NCBI GenBank assembly: GCA_039680605.1 | Contig: JBDKTA010000033.1 | Location: forward strand, 18,463 to 82,462 | Reading direction: 5' to 3' | Origin: Planctomycetaceae bacterium | Lineage (GTDB): Bacteria; Planctomycetota; Phycisphaerae; SM23-33 | DNA: 64,000 bases | Shown here: piece by piece, positions 18,456 to 20,888 of the stretch | Numbering within the stretch: position 1 is the first letter of the stretch | Layout: each line of letters starts with the position of its first letter | Notes under the pieces: model-generated | Seen by the model: only the letters and a program-made list of their open reading frames with translations | What the model was told of the DNA's origin: nothing | The model's database searches: none | Position numbers and translations under genes: made by a program

Positions 18456-20888
18456 TCACGCGGTTCGGTGAGGCCGCTCGAGGTTCGGGTGCGTCAGGTT
18501 CCGGCGCACGGCGTCCCAGGCCCGCTCGTCGTCGGCGGACTGGATCAGGGGCACGAACCCGTAGTCGAGGTACAACCGGATGGCGCCGGTCCGCTTGGTC
18601 TGCGTGCCCAGGAAGGCCTTGGCGTGCCATTTCGCCAGACGGTTGCAGGCCTCGGTCATCATGGCCTTGGCCAGCCCTTTGCCCTGGTACGCCCGGCGCG
18701 TGGCGACCCAGTGGATCTGCCCGTAATCCTCGCCCAGGAAGTTGCGGTTGAACCAGGCGCTGGTGGTGGCCGCCGCCAAACCGCGCGAGTCGAAAACCAG
18801 CAGACAGCGGCGGGCCCAGAGGGCGGCGTCGAGCCCGAACTGCGCCTCGAAGAGATCCTCGCCGATGGGAAAGAACGGCTCGGCGTCGCGCCAGATGTCG
18901 ACCCAGAGCGCCTGGTCGCCGTTGCGCATCCCGCGCAGCGTGTATCCCTCGGGCAGCGCGTTCTGCGGGATATCGTTCATGTGCAGGCGCACCATCATCA
19001 CGCCCCAGCCCGCCACCGGTTCCTCCGGCGCCGTCTGCGCCGGTCGTGTGGCATGGGCGTCTCGCCCATGCTCTTGCGTGGCATGGGCGTCTCGCCCATG
19101 CTCTTCGTTTTGCACGCAGCGCTGTATCTCCACAAACGCCTTCTGCGCCGCGCAGAACGCCGCCTTCACACGGCGGCTGCGGGTGACGGCGCCAAAGGGG
19201 CTGATGTGCATGTTGGCCATCCAGGTATTGCCCGGCCAGGTGTGGTCGGCCCAGCACCAGATCGTGGCCCCGCAGGCGTGGGGGCACTGGCGAATGCCCT
19301 CCAGTTCGGAGGCGATAATAGCCGCATGGACGTCCTCGCCCAGGAACCCGCCGGTCACGCCGCCCAGCGACGTGCCGCCGAACTCCGTGACGAGAATCGG
19401 CTTGTCGGGATACCGTTGGTGCAGGCCCTCCAGGTCGCGGGCGAACGTGCGCGTCGCCTCGGCGTGGTCCGGTTGGCTGGCCCCGCACCAGCCCACCTGC
19501 CCCCACGTCGGATATCCGTTGACGCAGCAGACGTCGTCACGGCTGAAATCGCCCCCGCCGATCCAGCAGTTCGACACGTGTACCGCCAGGCGCGTCGGGT
19601 CCAGGGCCTTAGCCTGGGCGATCAACTTAGCGTTAAGCTCGACGACAGCGGGTTTGCCCTCGATCGTCTCGTTGCTGACCGACCAGAAGATGACCGACGC
19701 ATGGTTGCAGTCGCGGCGGATCATGTTGGTGAGTTGCCGCTGCGCGGCGGCCTCGATGCTCGCCGCCGTCTCGGGCTTGTCCATTCCCGCGCCGCACCAA
19801 TACAGCGGGATCTCGTCCATCGCCAGCAGGCCCATCTCGTCGCAGAGGTCCAACTCGAAGGGGTGGTGCGGGTAGTGGCACAGTCGCACGTAGTTGCAGC
19901 CGGAGGACTTCATCATCTCCAGGTCCCGCCGCGTCACGTCGCGGTCCGGGCACATGTCGGTGTTGGGCGAGTCCTCATGGCGGTTGTAGCCCGTCAGGAA
20001 GATATCCTTGCCGTTCAGCGTCAGTTTCGTCCCCCGCGTTTCGATCGTGCGGAACCCGACGCGCAGCGAACGCTCATCGCGTGGCACAGGCTTTCCAGCC
20101 TGTGCTGCACAGCCTGGAAAGGCTGTGCCACCGTCAAGCAATCGCACCTCAACGTTGTACAGTCGCGGCGTCTGCGGCGACCAGAGTTCCACTGATGGAA
20201 CCTCACCATGCACTTCCAGCGTGGCGCCGGCCCCGCCGTCGACTACCACCGGCGCCGAAACAAACCGCCCCGCTTCCCGCCCGTCACTGCCGGCGAGAAC
20301 CACCTCGATTGAAACGCTCTGTTTATCGCGGCGGCCGTTAGCGACCTCCACCGTCGCGCTGAACTTCTTATCCGCGCCCGCGACCGTCGCCACGTGCTCA
20401 ATGTGCAGCGGATCCGTCGCCACCAGCGCCACCTCGCGCAGGATGCCCCCCACCGGCCGCCAACCGTAATGCTCGCCGGGCACGTCCTCGCTGCGGCGGC
20501 GGTTGTCGACCTCGACCACGAGCAGATTGTCCTGCCCGCACCTGACGAAGTCGGTTGCGGGCAGGTCGAACGGCAGGTAGCTGTCGGGGATGTCGCCGCA
20601 ATGTCGGCCGTTGAGCCAGACGCTCGCTCGGGCGCAGACGCCCTCGAACCGCAGCGCGAGTCGGCGCCCGAGGAAATCGGCGGGGACGTCAAAATGAGTC
20701 GCGAACCACCCTCGCCCCTCGTAGTTGGGCAGGTCGACGTGGCAGCGGTCGAAGGTGATGGGCACCTGCGCCTCGGTCCAGAACCGCCGGTCGTGCAGTT
20801 CGGCGAACCAGTTGCCCGCCCGCCCCTGGCCATACACGTCCGGCTGGAATCGCCACACGCCGCAAAGATCCATGCTGTGCCTGGTCAT
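18456..20888 (-). CDS. Glycoside hydrolase family 2 (beta-glucuronidase/beta-galactosidase-like) with a C-terminal GNAT acetyltransferase domain in the same frame
   Basis: GH2 sugar-binding, Ig-like and TIM-barrel domains (NHASVIFWSVSNE acid/base, ILVTEFG nucleophile). A 180-aa GNAT-like domain (YQGKGLAKAMM) follows, separated by a 24-nt tandem palindromic duplication. A REP-A pair is inserted in frame in the N-terminal half. Confidence 0.8.
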   Translation of the reverse strand: MTRHSMDLCGVWRFQPDVYGQGRAGNWFAELHDRRFWTEAQVPITFDRCHVDLPNYEGRGWFATHFDVPADFLGRRLALRFEGVCARASVWLNGRHCGDIPDSYLPFDLPATDFVRCGQDNLLVVEVDNRRRSEDVPGEHYGWRPVGGILREVALVATDPLHIEHVATVAGADKKFSATVEVANGRRDKQSVSIEVVLAGSDGREAGRFVSAPVVVDGGAGATLEVHGEVPSVELWSPQTPRLYNVEVRLLDGGTAFPGCAAQAGKPVPRDERSLRVGFRTIETRGTKLTLNGKDIFLTGYNRHEDSPNTDMCPDRDVTRRDLEMMKSSGCNYVRLCHYPHHPFELDLCDEMGLLAMDEIPLYWCGAGMDKPETAASIEAAAQRQLTNMIRRDCNHASVIFWSVSNETIEGKPAVVELNAKLIAQAKALDPTRLAVHVSNCWIGGGDFSRDDVCCVNGYPTWGQVGWCGASQPDHAEATRTFARDLEGLHQRYPDKPILVTEFGGTSLGGVTGGFLGEDVHAAIIASELEGIRQCPHACGATIWCWADHTWPGNTWMANMHISPFGAVTRSRRVKAAFCAAQKAFVEIQRCVQNEEHGRDAHATQEHGRDAHATRPAQTAPEEPVAGWGVMMVRLHMNDIPQNALPEGYTLRGMRNGDQALWVDIWRDAEPFFPIGEDLFEAQFGLDAALWARRCLLVFDSRGLAAATTSAWFNRNFLGEDYGQIHWVATRRAYQGKGLAKAMMTEACNRLAKWHAKAFLGTQTKRTGAIRLYLDYGFVPLIQSADDERAWDAVRRNLTHPNLERPHRTA
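20081..20132. repeat. REP family A pair located inside the GH2 coding sequence, in frame
   Basis: GTGGCACAGGCTTTCCAGCCTGTGCTGCACAGCCTGGAAAGGCTGTGCCACC. It translates as ...DGGTAFPGCAAQAGKPVPRDE..., which has no counterpart in the E. coli GUS alignment recalled from memory. Confidence 0.7.

Follow-up and report, generated by a model that had tools for sequence, protein, structure and literature searches.

How a short palindromic repeat that mostly lies between genes can come to be translated as part of an enzyme is the question raised by a 64,000-nucleotide stretch of Planctomycetaceae bacterium DNA (assembly GCA_039680605.1, contig JBDKTA010000033.1), referred to here as the window. The repeat, REP-A, is a 25-nt hairpin sequence, GGTGGCACAGSCTTTCCAGSCTGTG. 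Copies of it lie in frame inside a glycoside hydrolase family 2 (GH2) gene and a sulfatase gene, and an initial annotation of the window had proposed that such insertions are either tolerated or selected. Based on the comparative and structural analysis described here, we consider it very probable that REP-A is an element of the repetitive extragenic palindrome (REP) type, including the inverted REP doublets known as REPINs, and that its in-frame copies inside genes are tolerated passengers in functional enzymes, with one reading-frame class surviving. Toleration is the better supported half of the earlier proposal, whereas selection was overstated.

REP-A copies inside the GH2–GNAT and sulfatase genes

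The gene hosting the REP-A dimer carries the Pfam domains Glyco_hydro_2_N, Glyco_hydro_2, Glyco_hydro_2_C and Acetyltransf_1, corresponding to a sugar-binding domain, an immunoglobulin (Ig)-like domain, a TIM barrel and a C-terminal GNAT domain. Its first description as a GH2 gene was correct for the GH2 domains but is extended here to a GH2–GNAT fusion, an architecture conserved in hundreds of homologues of 760-800 aa from several phyla. In an alignment of 57 GH2–GNAT sequences, 50 homologues lack the insert and have a 7-residue loop at the place of the dimer-encoded GGTAFPGCAAQAGKPVPR. The closest relative (P0002, 75% identity), from the sister metagenome-assembled genome (MAG) GCA_021371965.1, reads SGAECV-DE at this place, and codon alignment with the sister gene locates 39 extra nucleotides exactly at the REP-A dimer. 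The two-unit copy thus gives a net gain of 13 aa, instead of the 17 or so residues estimated at first. The sister genome has a degenerate REP-A pair right after the stop codon of its GH2–GNAT gene, so that the REP-A family is present there. Since no REP-A is found at the GH2 site of the sister genome (nor at its sulfatase site), the family is shared between the two genomes but the GH2 copy is not.

The AlphaFold model of the GH2–GNAT protein has a mean predicted local distance difference test score (pLDDT) of 90.2, and values <50 occur only at residues 255-264 of the REP-A insert and at residues 597-622, the GH2/GNAT linker, which consists of a second repeat, REP-B. Residues 253-268 are modelled as coil between strands 244-252 and 269-277. 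This low-confidence coil agrees with the loop position first suggested for the insert. However, the loop is not between the Ig-like and TIM-barrel domains: it belongs to the final β-hairpin of the Ig-like domain, with the TIM barrel following a few residues later. It is noted that the homologues P0004, P0018, P0095 and P0011 have unrelated insertions of 4-11 aa in or beside the same Ig-domain hairpin, the loop of which appears, from these alignments, to be generally permissive.

The second host gene encodes an S1 sulfatase of the Cys type with the Pfam domains Sulfatase and SGSH_C. The REP-A unit directly before PFCLFVSPH is where it had been reported, though its net gain relative to the orthologues is 6 aa (18 nt) and not nine residues. 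In 52 of 58 sulfatase homologues there is nothing between a variable D/E residue and the xPFCLF block, where the window protein has QAGKPVP. The structural model (pLDDT 91.3) matches solved carbohydrate sulfatases, and the insert is located in a coil between helix 158-171 and strand 184-189, in a block with a pLDDT of 73. Both models therefore bear out the expected surface-loop placement, with the inserts in coil of lower confidence.

In place of REP-A, the sister sulfatase (86% identity) carries SFDCAQGR, an insert that is different but similar in length. This insert was considered as a decayed REP-A copy and rejected, its DNA being unrelated to REP-A and itself a different dispersed motif. 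The DNA at 9109-9128 of the sister locus (L001) is the 20-mer TTCGACTGCGCTCAGGGCAG, found exactly in five unrelated IMG/VR contigs (L244-L248), where it reads PFDCAQGR or LRLRSGQA. TTCGACTGCGCTCAGGGCAG represents another dispersed short repeat family striking the same sulfatase loop. Three other sulfatase homologues have yet other inserts in this loop, which is a permissive spot struck repeatedly.

Both genes keep open reading frames (ORFs) and intact flanking domains, as the initial annotation had stated; on both sides of the insert there are Pfam domains and GC contents at the three codon positions (GC1/2/3) of about.65/.41/.9, the coding composition of this genome. The acid/base and nucleophile glutamates of GH2–GNAT, E407 (NE motif) and E502 (TEFG), are invariant, as are C53, T54, P55 and R57 of the sulfatase C-T-P-x-R motif. 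Compared with the sister genes at dS≈0.6, dN/dS is 0.24 for GH2–GNAT and 0.14 for the sulfatase. The intact ORFs, invariant catalytic residues and dN/dS values of 0.14-0.24 indicate that the two genes are not pseudogenes, and we infer that the insert-bearing proteins are probably made and active. Because the orthologues lack the residues, the segments are insertions and not native REP-like sequence; they are specific to this lineage, as had been supposed, and orthologues with the same residues but no REP were not encountered in the two alignments. The REP-coded codons have a GC3 of 0.35-0.44 compared to about 0.9 in the host genes, giving them the look of foreign, unameliorated sequence.

The source is a MAG and a single assembly, which could suggest that the in-gene copies arose from assembly errors at repeats, or that the two enzyme genes are young pseudogenes. 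We regard this as extremely improbable. Each insert has one and the same gene on its two sides, in the same frame and with full-length collinear homology, the repeats of 25-53 nt are below typical assembly k-mers, and analogous in-frame copies are present in independent assemblies of other organisms. The intact ORFs, conserved catalytic residues and dN/dS well below 1 argue against the decay of either gene.

Two further ORFs had been listed with REP-A in the same frame. The one spanning the trimer at 16298-16378 is a called gene (P0241, 15952-16935) with in-frame coding composition on both flanks of the trimer. In its homologues P0242-P0244, an N-terminal domain of 115 aa is conserved and the tail, rich in Pro/Ala/Lys, is variable; the 25-aa REP segment of P0241 is absent from them. 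This is a third genuine in-gene REP-A site, in a disordered region. The other candidate, the ORF at 47500-47850, was rejected as a gene, having no coding composition, no Pfam match and no called gene. The dimer in it is intergenic, flanked by a GFO/IDH-family gene and an Eco29kI restriction-modification island with no gene called between them.

The same trimer, with the same CCGGATAT flank, is found at 11199-11282 of another contig of this genome (L251, contig JAJFUU010000130.1). There it constitutes the tail at the C-terminus of a radical SAM gene (P0245), the stop codon of which overlaps the start of the next gene. This is the fourth in-gene locus of this genome, and the trimer looks like a composite unit moving as a whole. 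P0241 itself is at the edge of one of two lower-GC islands (0.52-0.55) with mobile or defence-type genes: ~12000-16000 (DpnI, DUF3800, Fic, HTH) and ~44000-48000 (Eco29kI, DNA methylase, Vsr).

Table 1. Coordinates and readings of the host genes, repeat copies and transposase ORFs (coordinates are those of the sequence named in the second column)
Feature	Sequence	Coordinates	Strand	Context and reading
GH2–GNAT fusion gene, 810 aa	window	18456-20888	-	hosts REP-A dimer and REP-B pair
Cys-type (CTPYR) S1 sulfatase gene, 488 aa	window	21360-22826	+	hosts REP-A monomer
REP-A inverted dimer, heads outside, 3-nt spacer	window	20080-20132	.	within GH2–GNAT coding sequence; - strand encodes G253-R270, REP peptide GGTAFPGCAAQAGKPVPR
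REP-A single unit, exact consensus	window	21883-21907	-	within sulfatase coding sequence; coding strand reads REP peptide PQAGKPVPP, directly before PFCLFVSPH
REP-A trimer, two direct units and one inverted	window	16298-16378	.	within hypothetical gene 15952-16935 (-), P0241; REP peptide GGTAFPDREGGTAFPGRESQAGKPVPP
REP-A inverted dimer	window	47599-47651	.	intergenic; 117-aa ORF across dimer spurious
REP-A inverted dimer	window	7750-7805	.	intergenic, one + strand gene on either side
REP-A single unit	window	30570-30600	+	16 nt past stop codon of + strand gene
REP-A, two inverted units, 80-nt spacer	window	35340-35474	.	first unit abuts stop codon of gene 33531-35339
REP-A, two inverted units, 30-nt spacer	window	39306-39386	.	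between convergent genes
REP-B, two tandem units	window	19047-19105	-	GH2/GNAT linker; read as EEHGRDAHATQEHGRDAHAT (HGRDAHAT)
REP-B variant AGTAGCACGGGCATCTTGCCCGTG, GTAG-headed, two tandem units	window	2888-2935	+	first unit forms last 7 codons (VARASCP) and stop of seryl-tRNA synthetase (1629-2912)
REP-A in beta-lactamase/DUF4185 protein, 1049 aa	L026			GGAQAGKPVPP, upstream of Beta-lactamase domain
REP-A in Acidiferrales molybdopterin oxidoreductase	L083			GGTGFPAC...QAGKPVP, inside Molybdopterin domain
REP-A in HisF	L062			GGTGFQPVQAQPGKAVPP, inside His_biosynth
REP-A in unannotated ORF (less sure)	L024			GFQPVRSQPGKAVPP
Transposase ORF	L003	4665-5120		REP-A-bracketed unit 4541-5153; Pfam Y1_Tnp 37 bits (cut-off 23); E. 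coli RayT match
Transposase ORF	L114	5313-5780		REP-A-bracketed unit 5164-5881; Pfam Y1_Tnp 29.5 bits (cut-off 23); E. coli RayT match
Predicted peptides spanning insert junctions	window			LLDGGTAFPGCAAQAGKPVPR, EERPQAGKPVPPF

Structure and distribution of the repeats and the link to a transposase

A search of the 64-kb window (GC ~64%) with the pattern GGTGGCACAGGCTTTCCAGCCTGTG at <=3 mismatches finds 13 REP-A units at 8 sites, with an expectation of 0.00 from 100 shuffles. Five of the eight sites are intergenic, several being 0-20 nt from a stop codon, and three are in coding sequences (CDSs), in line with the first description of the family as normally intergenic. The unit, yGGT-GGCACAGSCTTTCCAGSCTGTG-C, is a GTGG-tagged stem-loop with a conserved length of 27 nt, i.e. 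9 codons. Its hairpin, CACAGGCT-TTCC-AGCCTGTG, has an 8-bp stem and a 4-nt TTCC loop, and is preceded by an unpaired head, GGTGGCA, with the GTGG variant of the GTAG tag. The stem comes in two variants, CAGGCT...AGCCTG and CAGCCT...AGGCTG, related by a compensatory G/C swap, so that the hairpin is preserved. In a set of 146 units taken from the window and from public genomes, GGCAC is preceded by G (82%), G (99%) and T (97%), and the base after the hairpin is C in 70%; the tag has no 3' pairing partner, and the flanks of these units show no conservation further out and no visible target motif. No target-site duplication is visible at the GH2 and sulfatase junctions.

Single units fold at -8.8 to -9.3 kcal/mol, with z about -3 to -3.6, and the GH2 dimer forms one long hairpin of -26.8 kcal/mol (z = -6.5); overall, the hairpin z values are from -3 to -7.6. 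Inverted pairs with their heads outside are present at five of the eight window sites (starting at 7750, 20080, 35340, 39306 and 47599), next to the trimer at 16298, and such inverted pairs also occur in loci outside the window. An Rfam search of the whole window at gathering thresholds returned no family for the repeats.

REP-A was also found at >240 further loci in public genomes and metagenomes, comprising at least 120 loci from a scan of one genome per species (L002-L121) and at least 120 from a metagenome scan (L124-L243, with 134 units of which 107 were evaluable). Among the matches listed, and with the labels of short contigs taken as given, MAGs with the labels Thermodesulfobacteriota, Planctomycetota and Acidobacteriota share an identical 22-nt core. 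The hosts listed are Desulfobaccales, Syntrophales and relatives in the first, Phycisphaerales, Planctomycetaceae and Frigoriglobus in the second, and Acidobacteriota.

In two Thermodesulfobacteriota-type MAG loci, L003 and L114, REP-A brackets a 150-aa ORF for a REP-associated tyrosine transposase (RAYT), an arrangement known as a REPtron. These ORFs are of low GC content, match the IS200-like Y1_Tnp family of Pfam above its cut-off, encode the HUH motif PDHVH and match E. coli RayT by phmmer. Both REPtrons apparently occupy one genomic position, with an ABC permease gene on one side and a gene for an outer-membrane efflux lipoprotein on the other. Searches among ORFs of >=90 aa in the window and in L001-L121, by phmmer with E. 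coli RayT and by jackhmmer with the L003 RAYT, found a RAYT only in L003 and L114. Additional pieces of the genome (L249-L253, MAG GCA_021372275.1) were checked for REP units and through the Pfam lists of their called genes, and no RAYT was seen in them.

REP-A shows all the REP/REPIN defining features that were tested except a RAYT in its own genome. The GTGG head, inverted dimers, mostly intergenic location and RAYT link in other genomes place it in the REP/REPIN type, and the REP label of the initial annotation is confirmed by these features. By analogy with the IS200/IS605 family, a Y1 (HUH) tyrosine transposase would copy REP-A in trans on single-stranded DNA, and a RAYT is probably present in this genome also. 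Mobility of the repeats is reflected by the empty GH2 site of the sister genome and by the single REP-B unit in the sister, compared to two here.

REP-B, the second repeat family, has the sequence GTGGCATGGGCGTCTCGCCCATGC and variants with either a GTGG or a GTAG tag. At the GH2/GNAT linker there are two units in the window gene, one in the sister (L001 11734-11757) and none in other homologues. Within this genome REP-B appears in at least three reading frames, as HGRDAHAT in the linker, MGETPM/TGKMPVLP at the FliO N-terminus and VARASCP at the C-terminus of seryl-tRNA synthetase. The called FliO gene (L253 1355-1984), on the same contig about 8 kb past the 3' end of the window, begins with 3-4 units of REP-B type reading AGETPAT, MGETPMR and TGKMPVLP before a transmembrane helix; its start codon may be miscalled.

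It should be mentioned that the window has further repeat families, namely the CCTGCCTGCCGGCAGGCAGG palindrome and AATCCGC/AATCGGT heptamer arrays, at 11027-11059, 11409-11441, 20998-21030, 23031-23063 and 42987-43012, and also at 9150-9181, 49245-49304, 50949-50994 and 58305-58336. One copy of the CCTGCCTGCCGGCAGGCAGG palindrome is in the divergent intergenic region between the GH2–GNAT and sulfatase genes. The only Rfam match in the window is a 6S RNA gene at 37882-38041 (RF00013, 61 bits), and ARAGORN found no tRNA in the window.

Reading frame and frequency of REP-A inside genes

For a census of in-gene copies, all units of the window and of the genome-scan and metagenome-scan loci were examined for a spanning ORF with in-frame coding flanks, followed by Pfam searches. 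All of the 6-7 in-gene REP-A copies identified independently of their frame (Table 1, the L024 ORF being the less sure one) are in the frame class reading GGTGFPAC / QAGKPVPP. Under a uniform null of 1/3 per case, as the palindromic element has three frame classes, the probability for six cases is p≈(1/3)^6≈1.4e-3. The radical SAM protein P0245 was excluded from this statistic because it had been retrieved through the REP peptide itself. The metagenome unit L138 was rejected as an in-gene copy due to its antisense composition pattern.

Avoidance of stop codons was rejected as the cause of the frame bias, all six frames of REP-A being open, and for the same reason any REP-A insertion with a length that is a multiple of three keeps the ORF open. 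The frame class in use has the highest share of Gly, Pro, Ala, Ser and Thr (0.67-0.75) and the highest turn propensity, and has the fewest Cys/Trp of the three dimer frames. It is also the worst fit to host codon usage, so compositional mimicry is not the cause of the bias. We infer selection on the encoded Gly/Pro/Ala-rich loop peptide, which is favoured over insertion in a fixed phase.

IS200/IS605-type enzymes insert beside short specific targets, and the frame bias could in principle be mechanical, if REP-A inserted beside a target motif lying in one codon phase of a periodic genome. The host genes are strongly three-base periodic, with GC3 about 0.9, and a conserved unit of 27 nt amounts to 9 codons. 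Nevertheless, we find this explanation very unlikely, as conservation in the flanks of the 146 units stops at the yGGT head and the +1 C, so that no target motif is visible. The in-CDS cases are moreover in both orientations and in three phyla of different GC content, and the net gains in length, 39 and 18 nt, differ from the unit lengths.

Roughly 85-90% of bacterial DNA is coding. Outside the window, 4 of 133 units in the genome scan and 0 of 107 evaluable units in the metagenome scan, among the matches listed, are in convincing CDSs, so that ~98% of the other units examined are outside them. REP-A is therefore strongly depleted from genes. Most copies lie between genes, and in this lineage some also landed in coding sequence. 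The in-gene copies visible today altered the length of the host gene by a multiple of three, sit in a surface loop, in a linker between domains or in a disordered tail, and are read in the one frame class that gives a turn-prone peptide rich in Gly/Pro/Ala/Thr (GGTGFPAC / AQAGKPVPP). Other insertions were presumably purged by selection, and the host enzymes would stay functional with the extra 6-13 residues passively tolerated.

The same observations can be viewed as exaptation, in which in-gene REP copies are kept as useful flexible loops or linkers, or in which the hairpin in the mRNA or DNA slows translation at domain boundaries or stabilises the transcript. The exclusive use of one frame class and the excess of in-CDS sites in this genome would be consistent with such a role, as would the hairpin of the GH2 dimer (-26.8 kcal/mol), which immediately precedes the catalytic domain. 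The linker REP-B, duplicated in this lineage, points the same way: 28 of 29 nt of the orthologous in-gene REP-B are identical between the two genomes at dS≈0.6, against a background of 79% for the gene DNA (p≈0.009). This identity suggests constraint, gene conversion or homogenisation, or re-insertion, and conversion among copies or recent re-insertion could also account for it. We consider exaptation unlikely. The hosts are unrelated to each other (GH2–GNAT, sulfatase, hypothetical protein, HisF, molybdoenzyme, radical SAM enzyme), the inserted segments are modelled as disordered and nearly all orthologues are without them. In other lineages these loops hold other, unrelated insertions, and different genes use at least three frames of REP-B.

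Several points weigh against the interpretation of the in-gene copies as tolerated passengers, which we still prefer. There is no clean pair of empty and filled sites, the nearest relative having 75-86% protein identity, and compared with the sister the junctions are replacements of a few codons, not simple insertions, so the insertion chemistry is not readable from them. The REP-B identity exceeds the conservation to be expected of a neutral passenger. The frame statistic is based on 6-7 events. Neither the window nor the other ~40 kb read from this genome yielded a RAYT, and the transposase link rests on other phyla. Finally, three of the eight window sites are in CDSs compared to about 2% elsewhere, an unexplained excess that could reflect relaxed selection, high activity or something positive about the insertions. 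This lineage resembles Opitutus terrae in being unusually permissive or REP-active.

A wider proposal combines a recruitment of REP cassettes, as loop or linker modules rich in Gly/Pro or as functional mRNA hairpins, with a spread of the REP–RAYT system between phyla. Recruitment is conceivable because of the one-frame use, the near-perfect orthologous REP-B and the in-gene excess, and inter-phylum spread because the 22-nt core is identical in three phyla while the transposase has so far been seen only in Thermodesulfobacteriota. Taken jointly, the two parts of this proposal are doubtful. Cross-phylum spread, if true, would run counter to the prevailing view that REP–RAYT systems are inherited strictly vertically.

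Significance and comparison with known systems

The in-gene copies would provide a well-controlled natural example of selfish hairpin repeats adding residues to enzymes without breaking them, supported by orthologues with an empty site, by structure models and by a census of reading frames. Such inserts show which positions (loops, linkers and tails) and which reading frame survive. With regard to annotation, REP-rich genomes of Planctomycetota and the Planctomycetes–Verrucomicrobia–Chlamydiae (PVC) superphylum hold REP-derived peptides such as QAGKPVPP, GTGFPAC and HGRDAHAT within ordinary proteins, and spurious ORFs arise across intergenic REP copies. Two leads on REP–RAYT biology can be tested, namely the strict frame use of the repeat and its identity across phyla.

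REP transposition into coding sequence had been described in the initial annotation as rarely documented. This understates the literature, given the 70 intragenic REPs reported for O. terrae (PMC3733652) and the in-frame Rickettsia palindromic elements (RPEs) known since 2000. RPEs are palindromes inserted in frame into unrelated functional genes, at positions judged to suit the fold of the protein (Ogata et al. 2000, 2002). These families are specific to Rickettsia; the best known, RPE-1, has a length of about 100-150 bp and codes for a conserved peptide of 30-50 aa, whereas REP-A units are 25-27 nt (8-9 aa) and RAYT-associated. RPEs reside in the reduced genomes of intracellular alpha-proteobacteria, in contrast to the planctomycete host of REP-A, and no sequence relation between the two was seen; their likeness is functional only. 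[quoted passage not shown] However, MITEs are 70-300 bp long with terminal inverted repeats and target-site duplications, while REP-A, which is far shorter, consists of a single hairpin.

The resemblance to the REPIN–RAYT systems of E. coli and Pseudomonas (Nunvar 2010; Bertels & Rainey 2011; Ton-Hoang 2012) is closer in structure. Both have short palindromes with a conserved head and inverted doublets folding as one long hairpin, both are mostly extragenic and near stop codons, and in both a single Y1 transposase gene is flanked by the same repeats, as in L003 and L114. Classical REPIN–RAYT systems are described as extragenic and vertically inherited, whereas REP-A is also translated in genes and its core is present in three phyla.

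A full-text literature search gave no match for the REP-A DNA string and its peptides in the searchable text of papers, nor were the strict single-frame use and the identical three-phylum core of REP-A found in the searchable literature. The best counterpart is the superfamily of GTAG-tagged REPs defined by Di Nocera, De Gregorio & Rocco 2013 (PMC3733652). In O. terrae, many of the intragenic REPs are in glycoside hydrolase genes, and the host genes encode GH2, GH20, GH28, GH31 and GH43 enzymes and include uvrA, dnaE2 and others; GTGG is the tag variant of most GTAG-20 units, and dimers have 1-5-bp spacers (PMC3733652). REP-A shares with the O. terrae families GTAG-17 to -20 the unpaired GTAG-like tag, a 6-9-bp stem, a short loop and dimers 1-5 bp apart, and it shares a host of the same PVC superphylum with intragenic copies that include a GH2 gene. 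The recurrent REP peptides of O. terrae, GTGVPPV, HGRDARAT, TGGTPVP and the C-terminal VARASRP (PMC3733652), have near-counterparts here in GTGFPAC, HGRDAHAT, TGKMPVLP and VARASCP, respectively. A neutral placement in loops and linkers has also been argued for the O. terrae REPs (PMC3733652). Two features set REP-A apart: GTAG-19 of O. terrae is read in at least five frames (PMC3733652), whereas REP-A is found in one frame class only, and, unlike the O. terrae REPs, an identical REP-A 22-mer is common to three phyla. REP-A in the window thus constitutes a new family, in a new host, of an already documented phenomenon.

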